Positions 1-18,198 of a DNA stretch of 64,000 nucleotides are shown here, piece by piece. Under the pieces are notes generated by a model that ran no database searches, had not been told where the DNA came from, and saw only the letters and a program-made list of their open reading frames with translations. This DNA comes from Patellaria atrata CBS 101060 (Eukaryota). The first letter of the stretch is position 1, and each line of letters begins with the position of its first letter. Made by a program: the position numbers and the translations under genes. The stretch covers positions 229,570 through 293,569 of the forward strand of contig MU006089.1 in the NCBI GenBank assembly GCA_010093705.1. Reading direction: 5' to 3'.

Positions 1-1
1 G

Positions 2-214
2 TTTCCACGATTATCTATACTTGCAATTGAGATCCTCTCAATTCCAGCAATGAGCGATGAACCAGAACGAGTGTTTTCAGCAGCTCGTCGTACGGTATCA
101 TGGGAAAGATCACGCTTAAGTTCAAGAGAGTTAGAACATACTGAATGTCTTAAACATTGGGCAAAACAAAAAAATTTATTGAAAGGTTCGTACGATTTGT
201 TTAGTTTCACCTAA
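2..214 (+). CDS. hAT transposase, C-terminal dimerisation domain (5'-partial)
   Basis: Frame 2 reads FPRLSILAIEILSIPAMSDEPERVFSAARRTVSWERSRLSSRELEHTECLKHW..., stop TAA at 212-214. This matches the hAT dimerisation-domain consensus (P.L...A...L.IP..S...ER.FS......R..L). It is absent from the ORF track because the start is outside the window. Confidence 0.92.
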   Translation, partial: FPRLSILAIEILSIPAMSDEPERVFSAARRTVSWERSRLSSRELEHTECLKHWAKQKNLLKGSYDLFSFT

Positions 215-316
215 TGGCTACTGATCTCAGACACACGTAAAGGTACAGATCACGTCTGAGTGCTACCAACAGCCCTGGATAGCTAGGCAAAGCAGAACAC
301 CGAAACGCCAGAACGC

Positions 317-883
317 TTAAACGCCAAAGAATACTTCGTACGAAGCTCTGCTCAACCAATGATTATAGCATTTTGGGGAGTAGCCCCTCATCGTCATCCA
401 GCACAATAGCATTCCCAGGGGCGGTGCCGTCAGCTCCGTCAACCCCTGAACCAGGTCCAAGCACCCTGGCTCCTTGAGCAGGCTTATCTGGACCACCAGC
501 TCGTACGGAACAGCGTGCTGTATGGTCGCGCCATTTGCAGTTGGCGCATGTTCCGCCAAAGTGTCCCTCAGCGCGGTGACAACTAAGGAAGGGACGGAAA
601 TCTCTCGTACGACAAGCCGCACAAGGATCAACGTCACCTCCACGAGACTGGATAAGAATCCCATTGACATATGACTGCCTATGAGATCCAATCTGCTCGG
701 TGTGATAGAGTCACGTACGAACTCAACATCAACACCTCCACCGACGGCCAGAAGTGCTCTATTCTGTGGGCTGTGACACCACGGAGCCAATTGCTGCTGT
801 GTTACGAGTAGCACCGGGTTGCGGTTCGCGTGAGCGGCAGCCGTGATCGCTGGGTTATAGAGAACTACTTGCGTATTGGCCAT
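317..883 (-). CDS. 188-aa protein of unknown function carried inside the hAT element, convergent with the transposase
   Basis: Uninterrupted ATG-TAA ORF, more GC-rich than its flanks. On the minus strand it is preceded by a canonical 48-nt intron (932-885, GTAAGT...GCTAAT...TAG) ending 1 nt before the ATG, a CT-rich leader (960-987) and TATAAAA (1012-1006). No domain recognised. Confidence 0.7.
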   Translation of the reverse strand: MANTQVVLYNPAITAAAHANRNPVLLVTQQQLAPWCHSPQNRALLAVGGGVDVEFVRDSITPSRLDLIGSHMSMGFLSSLVEVTLILVRLVVREISVPSLVVTALRDTLAEHAPTANGATIQHAVPYELVVQISLLKEPGCLDLVQGLTELTAPPLGMLLCWMTMRGYSPKCYNHWLSRASYEVFFGV

Positions 884-884
884 A

Positions 885-1012
885 CTATAGTCTTATTAGC
901 CTTCGTACGATAGGTTTAAGCTGAGTACTTACACTTTGAGTTACTAAAATCAAAGATTGAGAAGGAGAGAAGAAGAGAAGAAGAGAAATTCAAAAAAAAG
1001 ATGTATTTTATA
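885..1012 (-). promoter_or_regulatory. Core promoter and intron-containing 5' UTR of the hAT cargo gene
   Basis: TATAAAA at 1012-1006, pyrimidine-rich tract at 987-960, predicted 5'-UTR intron 932-885. Confidence 0.6.
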
Positions 1013-1020
1013 CAAATTGG

Positions 1021-1072
1021 CAGGTAGGCAGGTGGGCCAGTAGACAGGTGGACAGGCAGGCACGTAGGCACG
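1021..1072 (+). repeat. Degenerate 8-bp tandem repeat (about 6.5 copies of CAGGTRGR)
   Basis: caggtagg|caggtggg|ccagtaga|caggtgga|caggcagg|cacgtagg|cacg. Confidence 0.75.
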
Positions 1073-1228
1073 CCCTCGTGCCTTCTATCTTAGAACAGCT
1101 ATAGATGTTATTCATAGCTATATAATCCCTTCGTACGAAGAGTATCTTTATTTTAATTAAATTTCTAAGAAAACGATAATATTTTAGTTGAATTCTAAAG
1201 AATATTAAAAAATCTTAAAATGCCAAGA

Positions 1229-1318
1229 GTATTGTTAAGGTATTATGATATTCGATACAATACCGATGAAATACCGAGAATACTAATACCTTATCGATAC
1301 GGATCGTTGGCCACACTG
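1229..1318 (+). repeat. hAT subterminal repeats and right terminal inverted repeat
   Basis: GTATT at 1229 and 1240 (inverted orientation). AATAC at 1259, 1270, 1279 and 1285. GATAC at 1254 and 1296. Terminus CACTG at 1314-1318. Confidence 0.7.
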
Positions 1319-1344
1319 GTTCCTCGCGTCACCCCTGCAGCCCT

Positions 1345-1350
1345 ACGCGT
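1345..1350. promoter_or_regulatory. MCB element (ACGCGT) upstream of MSH3
   Basis: Exact ACGCGT about 70 bp before the MSH3 ATG, with a second CGCGT at 1325-1329. MBF sites are typical of G1/S replication and repair genes. Confidence 0.5.
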
Positions 1351-1421
1351 TTCCCCGTAGAATGAAATTCAGTTGGACTCAGGATATATCGCCATCTTCC
1401 AACGGTCTAGAACTTCCAATC

Positions 1422-4400
1422 ATGGCACCTTCATACCGGTCTTCTTCGCAAACTCATTCTTCCCAAGGGAAAAAGCAGCAGTCAATTTCAAACTTCTTTA
1501 CCCCCAAGCCAACGCAAACATCTGCACAACCATCTATACCGAAAACTTCCTCTCTCTCCCGAGCAGAGACAGAAAAGGAGAGTGAGAATGACAAGGAAAA
1601 TGACCTTTTCTTGAGTTCTGATGAAGAAGCACCAGTTCAGCCAAGACGGGCATCGCAAAAGTCAAAACGGGTACTGGATAATGGTGAAGGCGAATATGCA
1701 GAAAACCCGCCAGCCCCTAAGAAGTCGAGGAAGAACGGAGGGAATGACAGAGAGTTTGAAGATCCCAACCAAGGAGATGTTAGAACACAAGACGGTCTGG
1801 TGTTGCAGAACCATGCTTCGTCAAAGAGTCAACGCCCAGCTACGAAAAATGATGACCATCAGATACCTTCAATTCACCCGCGGACATTGAGATATATATT
1901 TTCCAGCTCATCGATTCCAGGACAAGTTGAAGGCGAATTGGACAATGACGAAACCAAGCAAAAAAAGGAGCAGTTACACCAACGCTTCGTAAAAAAGCTT
2001 GGGAGGCCAGACAGCATAGCGGATATCAAGAGGAAAAATCATTTCATTACCGAGGATGCAGCAGATGGGGAAGACGTTGAAGATGAAGAAGTTGACGAAG
2101 AGCCTGCATCTAAACCATTGAAGGGCAGGAAAGCGACTTCGACGAAAAAGACATCCACTAAACTTACGCCGATGGAGAAGCAAGTTTTAGAGATAAAAAA
2201 TAAGCATATGGATACCTTACTGGTTGTGGAAGTTGGGTACAAGTTTAGATTCTTCGGAGAGGATGCTAGAACTGCTTCAAAGGAGCTCGGAATTGTTTGT
2301 ATTCCAGGAAAATATAGATACGATGAGCGTACGTCGATCTCACACGCCAAGGTTTTGGCCTTTCTTAAGTTGAGGCTGTTATCTGATAATTTACAGATCT
2401 CTCTGAAGCTCACATAGATCGATTTGCATCTGCCAGCATTCCAGTACATCGTCTGCATGTCCACGTGAAGAGACTTGTTGCCGCAGGGTACAAGGTCGGC
2501 GTGGTACGCCAGGTTGAGACCGCAGCACTGAAAGCGGTTGGAGATAATCGCAATGGGCCATTCGTGCGCAAACTGACTAATCTCTACACCAAAGGCACGT
2601 ATATTGATGATGTAGAAGGACTTGAGGGTCCGTCTCCGGGTACTAACAGTACAGTACCGTCCTCTGGGTACATCCTTTGCTTAACAGAGACTAATGCGAA
2701 GGGATGGGGTAACGACGAGAAAGTACAGGTTGGAATTGTGGCCGTACAACCCGCGACTGGTGACATTATCTATGACGATTTTGAAGACGGCTTCATGAGG
2801 GGCGAAACGGAAACCCGGTTGCTTCATATTGCACCGTGTGAATTCCTCATCGTTGGTTGTCTGTCAAAAGCAACTGACAAGCTGATGAAAAATTTGTCTG
2901 CAAGCAAATCAAACGTTTTTGGTGATCAGGCAAGGGTAGAAAAAGTCGAAAAACCAAAGAGCATGGCCGCGCAATCGTACAGTCATATTTCTCAGTTCTA
3001 TGCAGAGAAAATGAAGAGCACTAGCAACCATCAAGAATCACAAGATCACGTCCTAGATAAAGTCCACCAGCTGTCTGAGCATGTAACTATCTGCCTTTCA
3101 GCACTTATTACTCACATGACCGAATACGGTCTGGAGCATATCTTTGACTTGACCAGGTATTTTCAACCTTTCAGTGCTCGTTCACATATGCTACTCAATG
3201 GCAACACATTATCCAGCCTTGAAATATATCAAAACCAAACAGATTACACTGCAAAAGGTAGTCTTTTCTGGACACTCGATCGAACCAGAACCCGATTCGG
3301 CCATCGATTGCTTCGCAAATGGGTCGGAAGGCCGCTTCTAGATAAACCCAAACTTGAAGAACGTACTTCCAGTGTTGAGGAGCTACGGGATATCGAACGG
3401 ACGGTCGCAGTCGAGAAATTAAAACATCTACTTTCCGACATCAAGATTGATCTCGAGAAGTCTTTGATCAGGATCTATTATGGAAAATGCACTCGCCCGG
3501 AATTCCTTTCTGTCTTACAAGCCCTGCAGAAGATCTCAAATGCATATGCTCATATTGAGTCTCCATCAGATGCAGGCTTCCGCTCCCGAAGCTTGAATGA
3601 AGCCATTGCTTCCCTCCCTAGAATTTCTAACTTCGTTATCTCTTATCTGGAGAGATTAAACGCTCAAGCTGCTAGGGAAGACGACAAGTATAATTTTCTC
3701 CGTGACGATCATGAAACTGACGACATCACTGAGCATAAACTCGGTATTGCCGCTGTGGAGCACGACCTTGACGCGCACCGTATGTTAGCGGCAGAGAAAC
3801 TCAAAAAGAAAAAGGTGGACTATGTCACTGTAGCTGGCATTGAGTTCCTTGTAGAGGTCGACAATAACTACCTCAAGAATGTGCCGGCCTCGTGGGCAAA
3901 AATATCTGGTACCAAGAAAGTATCAAGGTTTCACACTCCAGAAGTTGTCAAGATGATCCGAGAAAGAGACCAGCACAAGGAAGCCTTAGCTGCCGCTTGC
4001 GATAACGCTTTTAAGGACCTGCTCGCTGAGGTTGCAACCAAGTATCAAGAGCTCCGAGACTGTATCCAGTCTCTCGCAATGCTTGACTGCCTCTTGAGCC
4101 TAACGGAGATATCTTTACAACCCGGTTATGTCAAGCCTAAATTTACTGCTGAGGCGACCATTTCTGTCAAGGGGGGACGTCATCCCATGGTCGAGCAGCT
4201 TCTGCTTGATACTTACGTTCCCAACGATATTAATCTCTCTTCAGACAAGACTCGCGCGCTCCTTATTACAGGTCCCAACATGGGAGGCAAATCTTCGTAC
4301 GTACGTTCTGTAGCGCTTATTGCAATAATGGGTCAGATAGGCTCGTACGTTCCTGCTGAAAGTGCAGAATTGGGCATACTTGACGCAGTTTTCACTCGCA

Positions 4401-5017
4401 TGGGTGCCTTCGACAATATGATGAAGGGTGAGAGTACATTTATGGTCGAGCTAAACGAGACCAGCGACATACTCAAGCAAGCTACACCAAGATCGTTAGT
4501 CATCTTAGACGAGTTAGGTCGCGGTACGAGCACGCATGATGGTGTTGCTATCGCGGAGGCCGTACTCATGCATATGGTAACAGACGTCAAGGCTCTCACG
4601 CTATTCATCACACATTATCAGGATCTGAGCAAAATCGCCGAGAGATTTCGTCAAGAGAGCAGTCCAGTGTTGAAGAACGTGCATATGCGATTTACCGAAC
4701 AGCAAGAAGAGGGAATTGGAAAAGGCCAGATCACGTTCCTTTACGAAGTCGGGGATGGCGTGGCACATAGGAGCTATGGGCTTAATGTTGCTAAACTGGC
4801 AAATTTACCAAAGCTCGTGCTGGAAGTTGCTGCTGTAAAGAGTAGAGAGTTAGAAGAAAGCGTATTGAGGAGAAAACTTGGTAGGATGTAAGTTGCTATA
4901 TCCTTCACATCGTCATGGTAGCTAATGCTTGGCAGGGTCCAATTTGCTGGGCGCCTCGTTGATACCAATGCTAGCGATCTTTTGGACATCCTTGTGAAAG
5001 GTATGGAACAGTTGTAG
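1422..5017 (+). CDS. MSH3: DNA mismatch repair protein Msh3 (MutS family); 2 introns (2329-2396, 4888-4935)
   Basis: N-terminal PIP box [15 protein letters not shown]...[14 protein letters not shown]; spliced [17 protein letters not shown]; Walker [24 protein letters not shown]. An alternative in-frame ATG lies at 1362. Confidence 0.96.
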
Positions 5018-5609
5018 TCACCCAAATCAAACAGACTAGTCGCGTCATATTGTGGTAAAGGAATATATGGTTGTTCAAATTATATACGATTACAACAACG
5101 ATACGTATCATTTCCTCCTCGCCCAACTTGCGAAAGAGGATGAACAGATTTATCATGTCGATTAAGCTGTTGTGGACGCATGCTGCTCCCTCATAATACT
5201 TTTAGTCTCCAGGTGCTCTTAATGAGAATATGTACGATTGTTTACTTAAATACACTGTGCGTCAAATAGATCAGTGTACAACTCAGTTTGATATATTCAG
5301 GGGTCTATTATACAGTGCAAGTGACTATAAACTCACGAATTAAGAAACTATACGTTCCACCGGCATTGACCACGACCCCATCTGCTCCCATCAGGACATC
5401 GAGTCAGAGGATGAAATCGTCTCCCGCCCAATAAAGTTGCTCGGTGATCGTATGAATGGAGTGTTGAATCTGATAAGACTTCCAAGGTAATAAACTTCAA
5501 CGGCCTATGGTCGCATCGGTCATGCTCATCTGAACTTGCGTGTTGATCGAAAAAAATGCAGTGGTAAAAAGTCGTACGGCCCATGTTGTGATTTCAGTAC
5601 AATGAGGGT

Positions 5610-14414: not shown

Positions 14415-15178
14415 ATGGCGGCTGCGATAAAGGCGATCAATGCGAAGATTCGCGCAAACCCGGTGTCAAACTATGTCTGCTCGACTCGTGAGTGCGGCCC
14501 ATATTCCACCCATACAGGATATTGTTGGAGGACTAGATAGCATCGAGAAAATCGGGCGCATTAGAAGACTGCTAACGTTGAGATCTCTCGCTCAGACTTT
14601 TGGGGCCCAGTCTCGAACTTCGGTATTCCCGTAGCGGCCATAATGGACACGCAGAAAGACCCCGAGATGTACGAAAATATCTATCATATGTTATACTTCA
14701 TAATCATATCCTATACCTACAACATTCACCTGACTGGCTGTTGTTGAGATTTGTCTTAGACACGCACATCTCCCCACCACTTCTCTCAACACAATGTAAG
14801 AGACAACTTTGCTGACACAAACTACAGTATCTCCGGCCGCATGACCGGCGCTTTAGCAATCTATTCAGCAGTCTTCATGAGATACTCTGTCGCGGTCACA
14901 CCTAAGAACTATCTACTCTTCGGATGTCACTTCATCAATTGCGGTTCACAGTTGATCCAAGGATACAGATACCTACAGTACTGGAAGTGAGTAGTAACCC
15001 TAATATAGCAGCGAAGATCTTTGTGACCCTAAGGATGATCTATGTTTGTCCATAAGGGCTGACATATGATAGTTTCGGCGGACGGGAACAGACCCTCAAG
15101 GGGATGGGAAAGGAAGGAGCATCGAAGGTGGAGGACAAGGCGAAAAATGTTGCTGAAAAGGTGTTAAGGCAGAAATGA
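14415..15178 (+). CDS. MPC1: Mitochondrial pyruvate carrier 1; 3 introns
   Basis: Spliced [39 protein letters not shown]...FMRYSVAVTPKNYLLFGCHFIN. Not present in the ORF track. Confidence 0.94.
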
Positions 15179-15545
15179 CCAATAGATGAGGGAAAGAGCG
15201 GAGGATTCGAACAAACGAACTGGGATGATCTTGGATTCGATGCAGATACCACATTCAGTCCCAAGGCGCACTGTACGGTACACCTGCGGAAGGCCGAGAA
15301 CTGATTTATCCATTCTGATCTTCAAGTTATACAGTAAAATCTTTTAAGGATACATCGACATCGTGTTCCTCGGTTCCATCCGTCTGTACAGAACTTTTGT
15401 GCTGGTATCATCGAACGAAAGCCACTTTTTCCTCTACCAACCCGAAAAGCATTTTATACTACAATCTGTACAAAAATTAAAGATTTGAAAACTTCAAACT
15501 TCTATGCTCGTGTTGAGACGGGCAATGTATGCTTTGACCTGCTCA

Positions 15546-18198
15546 CTAATGGTGGAATAGCCTAATGTGCTGTTCCACGAACGTGATACCTAGTTTCTCA
15601 GCCGTGGAGAATACGGCCTGATCGTTCTGGCTACCGGTAGGCGCAGCTATGTATTTGACCCCTGAACGAGCAGCTCTGAAGACGTTGTCGATGAATGGGA
15701 ACTATTACCAACGTTAGTGTCAAAAATCGTCCATTGGCTCTTAATTAAGGGATGACACAAAATACTTACGAAAGCATCTGAACTGCAGGCTACTTCGGAG
15801 ACGTTGTTGAGCCATTCTTCGCGTTCGGTGTCAGTGAACGGTGTGGGCACGTAGCCTTCCTCAAAATTCTTTTCGTAGTCGTCCCTTTCGATACCCGATT
15901 TAGGTAGCTGTTACATTTGAAACAAGGTAATTAGACCCATATTCAGCGCAGTCCTCAACAGGAAATACTTACGGAGCCACTGCAAAGCATATCAATCGCA
16001 TTTGCCTTATCAGCTCTCTTGATACCTTTCCTCCATTTAAGATCTAGAGTCCGCGGGTTGAAGCGCATCCACCAGTTGTCGGCCTTATCACCTGCCAATC
16101 GAGTGCAGTGAATCCGAGCTTGAGAAAGATGAGCGATAGACACCAATACATTAGAAGAGAGTGACTCACACTGCTGTCCAGCACCTAACCCGACCACTTG
16201 TCCATTGAGAGCATAACAGACTGAGTTTGATTGAGTATATTTGAGCGCAATAGTCGCAACCGTGAGATCTCTCAGCGCGGACTCTTTCAGCGGCCCTGAA
16301 TTCTGAGGCACAATGATATCGCCAAATGTGTCCACTGGAGAAATTCTTGCGTCGTTGCGCTGCTGGGTCAAATATATCCCGTATGCCATCCTAGTCTCTT
16401 GCGTGGGCGGCTCATACTCTGGATCAATCTGTAAAATCAGATACTTGCCACCTTTTTTCCTCTTGAGGATCTCCAAAGCCTCTGGCGCATACCCTGGAGC
16501 AATTATCCCGTCTGAAACTTCCCGGCTGATGATCTTAGCAGTGGTCACGTCAACTTCATGAGAAAGCGCTATCATATCCCCAAAGCTAGACATGCGATCG
16601 GCACCCCTAGCACGGGCATATGCTTGTGCTAACGGGGAGTTTTCGAGACCTTCGATATCATCAACCATGTATACTTTTCTCTCTACCTCTGATAGCTTTA
16701 CGTCTATCGCCGCACCTGCTGGTGAAACTGCGAACATATACTATAAGTATTATATTTTCCAACACAATCTGAGGTCTACCTACCGTGTTTGAAACTAGCA
16801 GCGGCAGCATGGCCGGGAAACGCTTGACTAAGTTCCTTAACGAGAGGCCACGCGTTGAGCTATACATGTTAGAGAGATACTATCGTAGGCAGGAGAGCAA
16901 ATATACCGCATCGAGGAGATTGATGTACCCTGGTGCACCGCATAACGTTCGAAAGGGAAGTTTCGCATCTTTCATGTATGCCGCGGCTGGCTTTTGGTGA
17001 GGGTTTGCTCCATATCTGGAAGGAAGGGTTAGCTTGAACACTGCATAAAACACAACAAGTGAACAAGATCTACCTTAGTGAAATCTGTTGCTTGCCATCT
17101 CCCGTGGAGTATTGACGTCGGAAGAAGTCGGATATCGCATTGTCGTAATCTGCGGTATGCTCAAAAGCTTTGAGGGCATATAGTTGTCGCAGATCCTGTG
17201 AGACTTCTCCATCCTCGATGGCGGTAAGGAAGTCATGGTATTGAGAAGGATGAGTAAGAACTGATACTCGCAAATGGTTCTTTGCAGCAGCTCTTAAGAG
17301 GGTAACACCTTTTGCCCATGGTTAGAATAATAGAGTGTAAAAGAACGGTCGAGATCATACCGCCAATGTCAATTTCCTCTACCGCTTCCGGTATTGTGAC
17401 ATTGATCTTTGCAACCGTTTCCTTGAAAGGGTCTATAAAGTATAAGGACTTTGTCTGGGAGGGGAAGCTGGGACAGACTGACACAAATTGCAAATGACAT
17501 AGTCGATCTTAGAGATATGTTCCCGCAGAAGATCTTCCTATACTTGGGCATCAGTAAATGCATTAGATAATTTAAGAATCAATCTGACCTCGTCGGCGGG
17601 TAAGTCTCGGGCGAGAATGCCAGCATGAACCTACACATATCAGCCGTGTTCTACGTAGGCAGATGATTGCAATTACGGCAGCTGTATTGTGTTAGTAGTT
17701 GCTATGATATGGATTTCATGGGGAGATTCAACCTACGGTGGAGGGACTTCACGCGTCCATTCAGCATTTCAGGGGCTAAGGCTTTGTCAGCTCCAATATG
17801 TTATTCCAGTTACAGAAAGCACATTTCACCCTTGGTAATTGAGGATATATCATCCACTGGAAAGCCAGCCTCGCGTATCATTTTGGCAGTACCGCCAGAA
17901 GCAAGCATTCTGATCCCATTGTCAACTGACTGGAGATGCAACAGAGGAATTTGCTTATAACAGAGTAGATTCAATCATACCGAACTCCATTCTTCTCGAG
18001 ACCTTTGGCAAGATCTAAATAATCCCTAAAGCATCAGCATGGAAGCATCAAGACCGGTATCGGAGACCGCACCTAAAATGCCTTCCTTGTTATAAACACT
18101 CAGGATGGCTGTAGAAGTGGTGTCAGACGGCGACTAAGATGAAAATTCACTGCATACAACTCCATACCGATCTTCTGTGAATCCCCAGATGCCATCAT
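15546..18198 (-). CDS. ADE17: Bifunctional AICAR transformylase/IMP cyclohydrolase (PurH/Ade16/Ade17); 15 introns
   Basis: [97 protein letters not shown]; ends RLFHH*. Start ATG at 18198 or 18195. Confidence 0.96.

Follow-up and report, generated by a model that had tools for sequence, protein, structure and literature searches.

We show that the first 1318 positions of the window, by which we mean the whole analysed stretch of 64,000 nucleotides from Patellaria atrata CBS 101060 (contig MU006089.1, positions 229,570 to 293,569), very probably make up the right-hand end of a hAT DNA transposon that is present in multiple copies and whose plan runs from an inverted end through a DUF3716-family gene and a BED/hAT transposase to the other inverted end. 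The element is mobile and repeated, being present in several copies with differing flanks. Since hAT elements such as Ac, hobo and Restless are usually described as single-gene transposons, a conserved two-gene family changes this picture for fungi. We also found that the second gene and a short palindrome, TCGTACGA, recur together in fungal transposons of other classes. Taken whole, our best explanation combines the two-gene hAT structure with a mechanism linking the DUF3716 protein to the palindrome, and we give this combination an even chance of being right.

The reading frame at 2..214 on the plus strand encodes the C-terminal 70 residues of the hAT transposase, with the stop codon at 212-214 and the remainder of the gene upstream of the window start. 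Positions 2-211 match the C-terminal dimerisation domain Dimer_Tnp_hAT (PF05699; E 3.1e-12; 46.5 bits, with the cut-off at 21.4), in agreement with the initial annotation, which had proposed a transposase C-terminus with its stop at 214, and in 13 related loci the end of the transposase shares 54-69% identity with this segment. Reading inwards as CAGTGTGG..., the element's right terminus lies at 1306..1318 on the minus strand, with the repeat boundary at 1318. Over 1-996, contigs that match exactly reach word depths of 2684-3303 in run X1 and 4379-5310 in run X2, compared with 316 and 456 for the flank, and depth over 1-1318, second gene included, is about ten-fold that of the flank in these two runs, which possibly represent the very sample behind the window assembly and therefore lend no independent support. 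Single-copy flank contigs of 30,261 and 3,085 nt start at 1289 and 1290, one assembly word before 1318; two contigs in run X2 diverge past 1318 and one contig in run X3 ends at that position, while run X4 contains only 1134-1288, at low depth. The depth step, the flank-contig starts and the diverging contigs thus agree on the terminus at 1318 that had been read from the sequence. The terminal sequence occurs exactly once within the 64-kb window; searched there as a loose pattern with up to two mismatches, it gives 2 matches against 1.21 expected, which alone is not significant. The subterminal repeats of the initial annotation hold up in modest form: two hexamers recur four and three times in the last 200 nt of the element, and the strand-less region of short repeated hexamers at 1240..1305 is a weak feature.

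Complete relatives on metagenome contigs supply the rest of the architecture. At about 3.3-3.7 kb, these elements are bounded by CAG-type inverted ends and 8-bp target duplications and encode a BED/hAT transposase together with a second gene. The relative L002 measures 3336 bp, with inverted ends that match at 17 of 17 positions and a transposase (494+212 aa) carrying Dimer_Tnp_hAT together with a zf-BED match at 20.7 bits, just over the cut-off of 20.6. Its subterminal 7-mer is found nine times within about 150 nt of both ends and twice elsewhere in 16.9 kb. No target duplication was found at L002 itself; L014, of the same family, has a perfect 8-bp duplication. The L032/L033 element, at 3713 bp, carries both genes on the same strand and has inverted ends of 19 nt that match at 84% in L032, and its 8-bp duplication is seen as 8 bp of the L032 left flank that are identical to the L033 right flank. 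The first eight bases of the window terminus are common to the inverted ends of L002, L014 and L064, and L003 and L002/L004 represent one element with different right flanks. Across the related loci, a hAT transposase adjoins a DUF3716-family gene in 23 of 79, convergently in 16 and in tandem in 7. In the subfamily of the window element, the two genes converge tail to tail. The hAT element hAT-1_Ptr, described in a preprint, was considered as well and is an unrelated hAT. Sequencing depth, the complete relatives, the 23 loci and the purifying selection described below collectively support what the initial annotation had suggested, namely a hAT element that encloses a transposase plus a genuine second gene.

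The window copy of this second gene occupies 352..883 on the minus strand and is broken into frames 883-698, 698-384 and 387-355, with a stop codon at 354-352. It had first been read as a 188-aa ORF (883-317) without any recognisable domain. That ORF exists mechanically, and its first 62 or so residues (883-698) are coding; the true frame shifts by one base at 698, so that the rest of the ORF is an out-of-frame read. The 188-aa ORF matched no Pfam family, whereas the true frame, at 683-372, carries DUF3716 (PF12511; E 1.5e-12; 47.6 bits, with the cut-off at 22), the match covering positions 2-59 of the 59 in the profile. The gene therefore encodes a Cys/His protein of about 175 aa with a DUF3716 domain, and its intact colinear homologues measure 167-178 aa. 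A 44-nt intron at 718-675 would join both frames, but every homologue continues through this stretch in conserved coding sequence, and the intron was discarded. The window copy is a pseudogene that has lost its intact frame through two 1-nt frameshifts on the minus strand, the first at 697..698, where a C-run is one base short relative to intact copies, and the second in a G-run at 384..387, which removes the conserved C-terminal ...QNAIIIG end. Contigs with the extra base at 697/698 are in the minority, with depths of 434.7 against 2570 in X1 and 1459.8 against 9995.9 in X2, and the exact-match X1 contig of depth 2684 spans the 384-387 site unaltered. By these depth counts, most near-identical sister copies share at least the first frameshift, which indicates that amplification proceeds without need for the gene in cis.

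The expression signals noted initially are all present in the sequence. A predicted 48-nt intron of the form GTAAGT...CTAAT...TAG (885..932, minus strand) ends 1 nt before the ATG at 883, and a TATAAAA box, recognised by consensus match at 1006..1012 on the minus strand, precedes a CT-rich leader. An intron occupies the corresponding position in relatives: that of L002 splits the start codon, 19 of 21 genes have an AG|G junction codon, and 9 of the 21 have a strict donor 46-96 nt upstream. On these signals, the second gene is very probably a genuine Pol II gene with a start-codon intron. Of 11 pairs in the comparison of dN/dS that had been suggested as a check, 10 gave 0.14-0.31, while the closest pair stood at 0.55, and the gene family is under purifying selection.

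We found that DUF3716 is the only domain that a Pfam search finds in the protein, with scores of 46-62 bits in relatives; a weak 'Agouti' match in the second-gene protein fell below its own cut-off and was disregarded. The protein comprises a conserved N-terminal domain, an eight-ligand Cys/His module that corresponds to DUF3716, and a disordered acidic tail with a short hydrophobic end motif. In an alignment of 29 sequences, the ligand set C, C, C, H, C, C, H, C is conserved, with C85, C88, C99, C110 and C113 invariant and H105, H118 and C122 present in at least 90% of the sequences, a pattern that makes the module a putative zinc-binding one. The family counts 402 representatives when the limit is set at E<=1e-10, of which 118 reach E<=1e-30, and its named members come from species of Dothideomycetes, Lecanoromycetes, Eurotiomycetes, Leotiomycetes and Sordariomycetes. 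A protein model with pLDDT of about 87-93 over residues 20-125 matched none of the solved DNA-binding folds: Foldseek against the PDB returned nothing at E<=0.001, the best E being 5.8, VIA-align, run over 48,161 chains, returned nothing at Z>=2, and the best score in a protein atlas comparison, 0.81, was under the meaningful level. Comparison of the profile with PDB sequences gave only rows at E 0.18-2.6, including a ZZ-type zinc finger at E 0.44; fingers of this type are known for binding proteins rather than DNA. As for related proteins, NCU05718 of Neurospora is described as binding double-stranded repeat DNA directly and as having no annotated DNA-binding domain (PMC4650311), and it is named as the orthologue of a DUF3716 protein in a source that also places DUF3716 domains in ordinary fungal proteins (PMC10776026).

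The second feature of these elements is the palindrome. CGTACG occurs at eight sites in window positions 1-1318, compared with 12 in the other 62.7 kb. Two of the eight belong to the transposase, one within its coding sequence (89..94), where the homologous codons of L002 also hold a site, and one at the end of the coding sequence (189..194). The third (337..342) is part of a 12-nt palindrome, CTTCGTACGAAG, just beyond the accessory gene. Three sites lie within this gene, at 502..507 over S-V-R codons, at 606..611, and at 714..719 over F-V-R codons, and the same codons hold the first and last of these in L002. The seventh site (904..909) falls within the 5' intron, which holds one TCGTACGA site, and many relatives have a palindrome site at the 3' end of the start-codon intron; the eighth (1132..1137) forms a 12-nt palindrome upstream of the TATA box. 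L002 has 17 sites inside its 3336 bp and 2 in the 13.6 kb outside. Over 32 non-redundant loci, there are 622 sites in 86.1 kb inside elements against 21 expected, an excess of about 30-fold, and 36 in 93 kb outside against 22.7 expected. The gaps between sites in these 32 loci have a median of 138 bp and a mean of 146 bp, with a coefficient of variation of 0.585; random placement gives 0.97 and never fell below 0.85 in 2000 trials, so the sites are more evenly spaced than chance would produce. All the carriers of the gene are dotted with them in coding and non-coding sequence alike. In 11 of 15 ORFs the palindrome count exceeds that of all 1000 synonymous-codon shuffles, and one Copia pol holds 41 palindromes against a shuffle mean of 6.25. 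The palindromes thus stand about a nucleosome apart and are kept against codon expectation.

The palindrome differs in sequence from the hAT subterminal repeats, which keep to the ends. The only motif-free controls are a pair of adjacent transposase ORFs that were not seen with the gene; they hold no palindrome sites, and both lie in possibly old regions. Gene and intact motifs are found together in 44 of the 79 loci, and a further 28 hold decayed relics, with 545 CpG-to-TpG transition relics of the palindrome against 72.8 expected. Among the 40 variant positions listed, out of 90, for sister copies, none falls in a palindrome; with about 1.5 expected, this carries no information either way. 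Comparison of protein clades with motif variants revealed an invariant core, with only a flanking base shifting, in L055 and L036; there is hence no covariation to prove direct recognition. The central six bases of the palindrome alternate between pyrimidine and purine.

The initial annotation asked whether homologues of the second gene always sit next to hAT transposases, and they do not: beyond the 23 hAT loci, the same gene family adjoins Copia, Gypsy, Crypton-like, helicase and IS3EU-like genes. The partner gene types include Copia, Gypsy, rva_4 integrase, NDC10_II/GCR1_C and OrsD-helicase; at L023 the gene is found with an rva_4 integrase and an ORF with a Clr5 domain, and at L055 it is paired with Gypsy pol. 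Gene and motif travel together in at least six unrelated transposon types, a link that is one of co-occurrence only; the loci in the motif analysis were selected for holding the gene. Among the matches listed in our literature search, none linked DUF3716, hAT elements and TCGTACGA. The presence of one gene family and a periodic palindrome across unrelated transposons hints at a shared system of self-protection or self-activation.

How could a small protein and a dispersed palindrome serve so many elements? The most likely reading, which we infer at somewhat less than even chances, is that the DUF3716 protein binds TCGTACGA sites and keeps its element active. The transposon-encoded protein would be a sequence-specific DNA-binding factor for this CpG-containing palindrome, which recurs every 140-150 bp or so, roughly one nucleosome length, across the entire body of each carrier of the gene, coding regions included. 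Their occupancy may sustain transcription or shield the element from CpG-directed methylation, mutation or heterochromatin. Because frameshifts disable the gene in the window copy and in most sister copies, the few intact copies would have to act in trans, supplying protein to the others. The protein would then be a functional counterpart in fungi of the VANC proteins of Arabidopsis VANDAL elements. Among the roles that had been proposed for the accessory gene, anti-silencing of this kind probably fits best; a toxin or drive function is without support, and a transposition cofactor is disfavoured for reasons discussed below.

It is tempting to extend this proposal to a system of self-marking that crosses element classes in filamentous ascomycetes, in which a small zinc protein may act in trans on palindrome-marked copies, keeping them open or shielding them. 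We regard this broader version as tentative and hold it with distinctly limited confidence. The palindrome would be written about once per nucleosome over the full length of hAT, Copia, Gypsy, Crypton-like, helicase-bearing and IS3EU-like carriers, the shielding could be directed against CpG-directed methylation, RIP-like mutation or heterochromatin, and the gene-plus-motif pair would have switched element classes repeatedly. In this scenario, the protein family may also be the factor that acts on the TCGTACGA promoter repeats of azole tolerance in a banana pathogen.

Another possibility, which we consider unlikely, is that the palindrome is the site of a host factor, an activator or pioneer, that many transposons gathered independently, and that the DUF3716 protein acts otherwise, for instance as a histone- or SUMO-reading adaptor through its zinc module and its acidic/hydrophobic tail. 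In the 29-sequence alignment the tail holds hydrophobic-plus-acidic motifs, which we take to resemble the consensus of SUMO-interaction motifs. The faint profile match to a ZZ-type finger and the invariance of the palindrome core over protein clades are consistent with such a role, as is the description of TCGTACGA raising expression at a host-gene promoter, where no transposon gene is implicated in the accounts given (PMC6637983, PMC8252799). A host factor would, however, lead one to expect sites in promoters or LTRs, yet the palindromes are evenly spaced through 5-kb coding regions. It would also leave aside that gene and motif have travelled together through so many unrelated transposon types, that the two neighbouring transposase ORFs not seen with the gene are devoid of sites, and that direct binding to double-stranded DNA has been reported for a member of the DUF3716 family (PMC4650311, PMC10776026).

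The regular spacing, with its mean near one nucleosome length, and the pyrimidine/purine alternation in the central six bases would also suit palindromes that act as DNA without any protein, by positioning or excluding nucleosomes or by interrupting the homology sensing that sets off repeat-induced point mutation, with the gene as an unrelated passenger. We consider this improbable, since it explains neither why one gene family accompanies the motif in unrelated elements nor why that gene is under purifying selection, and the decayed copies show that the sites failed to stop CpG-to-TpG mutation.

The location of the gene inside the element and beside the transposase, the repetition of the motif within the element, and the prospect that frameshifted copies use the protein in trans could point to a cofactor of transposition, a protein that would bind the repeated sites and so assist the transposase in locating the ends or bringing them together. 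Such a part is played by two accessory proteins, the Myb-like one of PIF/Harbinger and TnpA of En/Spm, each acting in the transposition of a single superfamily and binding close to its element ends. A cofactor is nonetheless decidedly improbable here, because the gene-plus-motif pair serves cut-and-paste, LTR and tyrosine-recombinase-type elements alike, and LTR retrotransposons and Crypton-like elements use no hAT transposase; moreover, the sites fill the whole element body and its coding regions rather than only the ends, where separate subterminal repeats of another sequence are already confined. Finally, it is very improbable that the second gene does nothing for the element, as a piece of a host gene picked up by capture or as a neutral hitch-hiker, a view that the frameshifts in the window copy and most sisters and the occurrence of DUF3716 in ordinary fungal proteins (PMC10776026) would favour, given the purifying selection across elements, the conserved gene structure with its start-codon intron, the constant position and length of the gene in 23 hAT loci and in other element classes, and the large size of the family with its similar protein lengths.

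Binding of the palindrome by the DUF3716 protein thus remains our preferred reading, and it has several implications. The recurrence of one small gene family and one 8-bp palindrome in cut-and-paste, LTR and recombinase-type elements points to self-marking, combined with either self-defence or self-activation, as a general strategy of fungal transposons. It also provides a concrete candidate for a DNA-binding role of DUF3716 and a simple sequence signature with which live and dead members of these elements can be found in genomes.

Several known systems bear comparison with the elements described here. DUF3716 genes within a DNA transposon have already been reported: REP9, an IS3EU-type transposon of Zymoseptoria tritici, has four genes, two of which encode DUF3716 (PMC8232023). 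REP9 thus resembles our elements in carrying DUF3716 genes inside a DNA transposon, and in this respect locus L023 may be compared with it. It belongs to a different transposase superfamily, the comparison with the window family being by description only, and neither a dispersed palindrome nor a link to hAT elements or retrotransposons is reported in the available part of that source (PMC8232023). An antisense extra gene is also on record for an LTR retrotransposon, as brtn of the Boty-like (Gypsy) elements of Botrytis cinerea (Zhao et al. 2011, cited in PMC8365987 and PMC4227169). Its domain content is not given in the available parts of these two papers; Botrytis species have DUF3716-family members, and L055 likewise pairs the gene with a Gypsy pol.

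The palindrome, in turn, has been described from a host gene. TCGTACGA is the palindromic core of the Pfcyp51 promoter repeats of Pseudocercospora fijiensis, which are associated with azole resistance; the copy number of these repeats tracks higher expression, the factor that binds them was not known to the authors in the accounts given, and the authors suspected that the repeats are remains of transposon activity (PMC6637983, PMC8252799). The 8-bp palindrome is identical to that of the DUF3716 carriers, although at Pfcyp51 it occupies a host promoter, in 1-6 copies of tandem 16-20-bp units as described there, rather than the body of an element. Our findings offer a lead on the factor behind this published fungicide-tolerance repeat.

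With respect to classical hAT transposons, the window element shares the C-terminal dimerisation domain, and its relatives share the BED finger, the short CAG inverted ends, the 8-bp target duplications and the short subterminal repeats. The family differs from them in that a conserved gene other than the transposase is inserted between the latter and one of the ends, and in a palindrome that is dispersed over the whole element and not only near its ends. The Myb-like protein of PIF/Harbinger and TnpA of En/Spm offer another parallel, as a second element-encoded protein that is a presumed binder of repeated sites in the element; in contrast to these, the sites of the DUF3716 carriers extend over the body of the element, and the gene is shared between element classes.

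We know of only one comparable case of self-marking, that of VANC in plants. The VANC proteins, encoded by the Mutator-type VANDAL elements of Arabidopsis, are described as binding motifs in their own elements and removing methylation (PMC5735166). As a functional analogy only, the two systems share an element-encoded, non-transposase protein paired with a short motif that is concentrated in the same elements, and action in trans on sister copies is plausible for the DUF3716 carriers as well. The targets of VANC are often tandem repeats, as described in PMC5735166, whereas the DUF3716 carriers hold single 8-bp palindromes spread evenly through coding DNA. In contrast to VANC, the pair formed by the DUF3716 gene and its palindrome is common to class I and class II elements.

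We find that the repeat unit ends exactly at window position 1318 and that the accessory gene lies within it. Public contigs were aligned to window positions 1-2400, two of the runs coming from one sample that is perhaps the window's own source. This conclusion holds because exact-match contigs over 1-996 had word depths of 2684-3303 and 4379-5310 against 316 and 456 in the flank (depth not being equivalent to copy number), single-copy flank contigs begin at 1289 and 1290, two contigs run on past 1318 in unlike sequence, and in a third run one contig breaks off at 1318, where the initial annotation had also put the end of the element. The gene region is also covered by diverged variants, about 10-14% different. 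In one run from a different coded organism (X3), positions 1-653 and 737-1318 recur without differences at a depth of about 6 and the neighbouring repair gene is absent, which points to one of two causes, a recent horizontal transfer of the element or high-copy sequence carried over between libraries. That neighbour, in the stretch 1319-4891, is a MutS-family mismatch-repair gene with MutS_I, III, IV and V domains and a likely start at 1422; as the element ends about 100 bp upstream of this start, the promoter region of a gene for DNA repair harbours a transposon.

Within the unit, a hAT C-terminal dimerisation domain (2..214, plus strand; PF05699, E 3.1e-12) faces a minus-strand gene whose previously described TATAAAA box (1012-1006), following CT-rich leader, 48-nt intron (932-885, GTAAGT...CTAAT...TAG) and ATG (883) could all be located by reading the sequence. 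The 188-aa ORF attributed to this gene (883-317, minus strand) exists but matched no family, and from residue ~62 onwards it is an out-of-frame reading. No domain had been recognised in the protein; a complete DUF3716 domain (PF12511, scoring 47.6 bits where the cut-off is 22) lies in a different frame at 683-372 on the minus strand. Because homologues are colinear (167-178 aa, with one partial form of 131 aa) and join the frames without a gap, and because tblastn switches frame at base 698 and again at 384-387 (both minus strand), the window copy reads as a DUF3716 gene broken by two 1-nt frameshifts. A 44-nt intron joining the two frames was discarded, since relatives keep the same stretch as protein. 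Contigs with an extra base restoring the first frame are a minority (depth 434.7 of 2570, and 1459.8 of 9995.9) and the second site is unchanged in the exact-match contig at depth 2684 (run X1), so most sister copies are broken in the same way. Over window 355-398 the comparison is with P0002, the closest intact protein, which reads ...DDDEG-LPP-QNAIIIG where an older relative has ...DDDEG-ATP-QN...; it looks as if a frameshift like the window's was followed in P0002 by a compensating second indel a few bases away, although the pattern could equally be a gene-model artefact. Genuine compensation would point to selection for retaining the C-terminal motif.

Complete relatives were found among 79 loci obtained by scanning metagenome contigs with the family alignment, using search peptides that do not encode the palindrome. 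At locus L002, a whole element of 3336 bp with inverted ends matching at 17/17 carries a 178-aa accessory gene facing a 494+212-aa transposase with zf-BED and Dimer_Tnp_hAT domains. No target duplication was present at its flanks; a decayed copy of the same family, L014, has a perfect 8-bp duplication, and L003 has the element of L002/L004 with a different right flank. A second architecture (L032/L033) places both genes on one strand of a 3713-bp element with 19-nt ends at 84% and an identical 8 bp on both outer flanks. The first 8 bases of the window terminus are common to the relatives' ends, and a hAT transposase adjoins the accessory gene in 23 of the 79 loci by tblastn, convergently in 16 and in tandem in 7. 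The proposal of a hAT element with a transposase and a genuine second gene is thus supported in its core, and the observation as a whole is partly confirmed. The L002 contig also holds a second hAT transposase (15391-16938; ~37% identical, palindrome-free and not seen with the accessory gene), and next to it a small element whose 22-nt inverted ends are perfect (14756-15199).

In sequence terms, the accessory gene reads as functional at the level of the family; of 11 pairs compared, 10 have a dN/dS of 0.14-0.31, and the closest one has 0.55. The family alignment has 8 conserved Cys/His positions, and in an AlphaFold model residues 20-125 are placed with confidence and the chain beyond 126 is disordered. 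A profile search returned 1356 representatives at E<=0.001; tightening the limit to E<=1e-10 leaves 402, and E<=1e-30 leaves 118. Named members occur in Patellaria, Villophora, Usnea, Blastomyces, Histoplasma, Botrytis, Clarireedia and Nemania. The position of the intron first noticed in the window is conserved among relatives, and in most family members a ~46-nt intron appears to split the start codon itself, with AT before and G after (9890-9940 in L002); of 21 genes, 19 have the AG|G junction codon and 9 a strict donor. Family-wide, the 3' end of the intron often holds a copy of the palindrome, which might let the protein regulate its own gene. The disordered tail (alignment columns 160-264) has acidic runs beside short hydrophobic cores, and nearly all members have a short hydrophobic (N/D)(A/P)-I-V-L-type motif at their very end; we take these tail motifs to resemble SUMO-interaction motifs. 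Four contigs (L037, L071, L076 and L077) carry two copies of the gene, inverted or in tandem, which may represent nested or adjacent elements.

The gene is also carried outside hAT elements. By tblastn, 12 of the 79 loci were Gypsy-like, 7 Copia, 4 OrsD-helicase (one also with NDC10 and GCR1_C matches), 3 NDC10/GCR1_C and 2 rva_4, and 29, mostly short contigs, fell in no class; among the latter, Pfam assigns a Copia-type RVT_2 domain to L042. In palindrome-rich loci, the large ORFs adjoining the gene are Copia-type pol, Gypsy-type pol, an rva_4 integrase with a Clr5 ORF, NDC10_II and GCR1_C proteins, and OrsD plus DEAD-helicase proteins. A quick tree of 31 rows, omitting redundant or decayed loci and hits shorter than 100 aa or with stops, scatters hAT-linked genes over at least three positions among the rest, with the modest support of so short a protein. 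In the Copia-type carriers L030 and L017, whole contigs assemble as circular permutations with repeated ends and periods of ~7.2 kb and 7139 bp, which could reflect collapse over LTRs, tandem arrays or circles; L018 is the same unit as L017 with another start point. GCR1_C and NDC10_II ORFs accompany the gene in L025, L051, L060 and L075, and in the named protein P0093 GCR1_C is fused to DUF3716, partners that presumably point to Crypton-type elements.

A second feature travels with the gene: the palindrome CGTACG, for the most part within TCGTACGA, has 8 copies in window 1-1318 against 12 in the remaining 62.7 kb, and 17 inside the L002 element against 2 in 13.6 kb outside. A crude excess of at least five-fold was found in 44 of the 79 loci, none in 29, and an intermediate one in 6, among them L002, where it is limited to the element. 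Spacing was analysed in 34 non-redundant loci, 13 redundant ones having been omitted beforehand; after 2 with fewer than 5 sites in the densest chain were dropped, the 32 kept held 622 sites in 86.1 kb where 21 were expected, and the 93 kb outside held 36 for an expectation of 22.7. The gaps between sites averaged 146 (median 138) with a CV of 0.585, compared with 0.97 for random placement (minimum 0.85 in 2000 trials). The sites occupy all three codon phases, and their number exceeded all 1000 synonymous-codon shuffles in 11 of 15 ORFs, the other 4 being short. Other GTAC-centred palindromes showed no enrichment, and none of the sites fell in two nearby transposase ORFs for which no accessory gene was seen. 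The hAT subterminal repeats are unlike the palindrome in sequence and restricted to near the ends. The palindrome-poor loci are no exceptions: 28 of them (205.8 kb) hold 545 occurrences of the 16 transition derivatives of the palindrome against 72.8 expected (maximum 89 in 30 resamples), compared with 118 against 79.8 expected for the transversion control; usually both CpGs are affected, and the median gap is 152.

One explanation is that the accessory protein is a transposition cofactor. Against this, and in favour of a trans-acting factor, gene and palindrome together cross unrelated element classes and the sites fill element bodies. Such co-travel of protein and 8-bp palindrome, both of them conserved, would fit a trans-acting factor that recognises palindrome-marked elements, and we infer that the accessory protein may be what binds the palindrome. 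Such a cross-class self-marking system is a tentative proposal, somewhat more apt to be wrong than right. Counting against a trans-acting factor of this kind, the loci were chosen for having the accessory gene, no solved fold matches the protein model, protein clade does not covary with palindrome variant, and the gene is not needed in cis, because frameshifted copies were amplified.

Our literature search found no link between hAT elements, DUF3716 and the palindrome; preprint supplements and Zhao 2011 lay outside it, and an earlier description there is possible. DUF3716 genes inside a transposon are already known from REP9 (PMC8232023), and an extra antisense gene is known in Boty. Three published leads bear on the proposed mechanism. 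A Neurospora protein with no annotated DNA-binding domain binds directly to double-stranded repeat DNA (PMC4650311), and PMC10776026 calls it orthologous to a DUF3716 protein. In the Pfcyp51 promoter, TCGTACGA forms the core of repeats that vary in number in step with expression (PMC6637983, PMC8252799). For element-encoded, motif-directed anti-silencing, the VANC proteins provide a precedent (PMC5735166).
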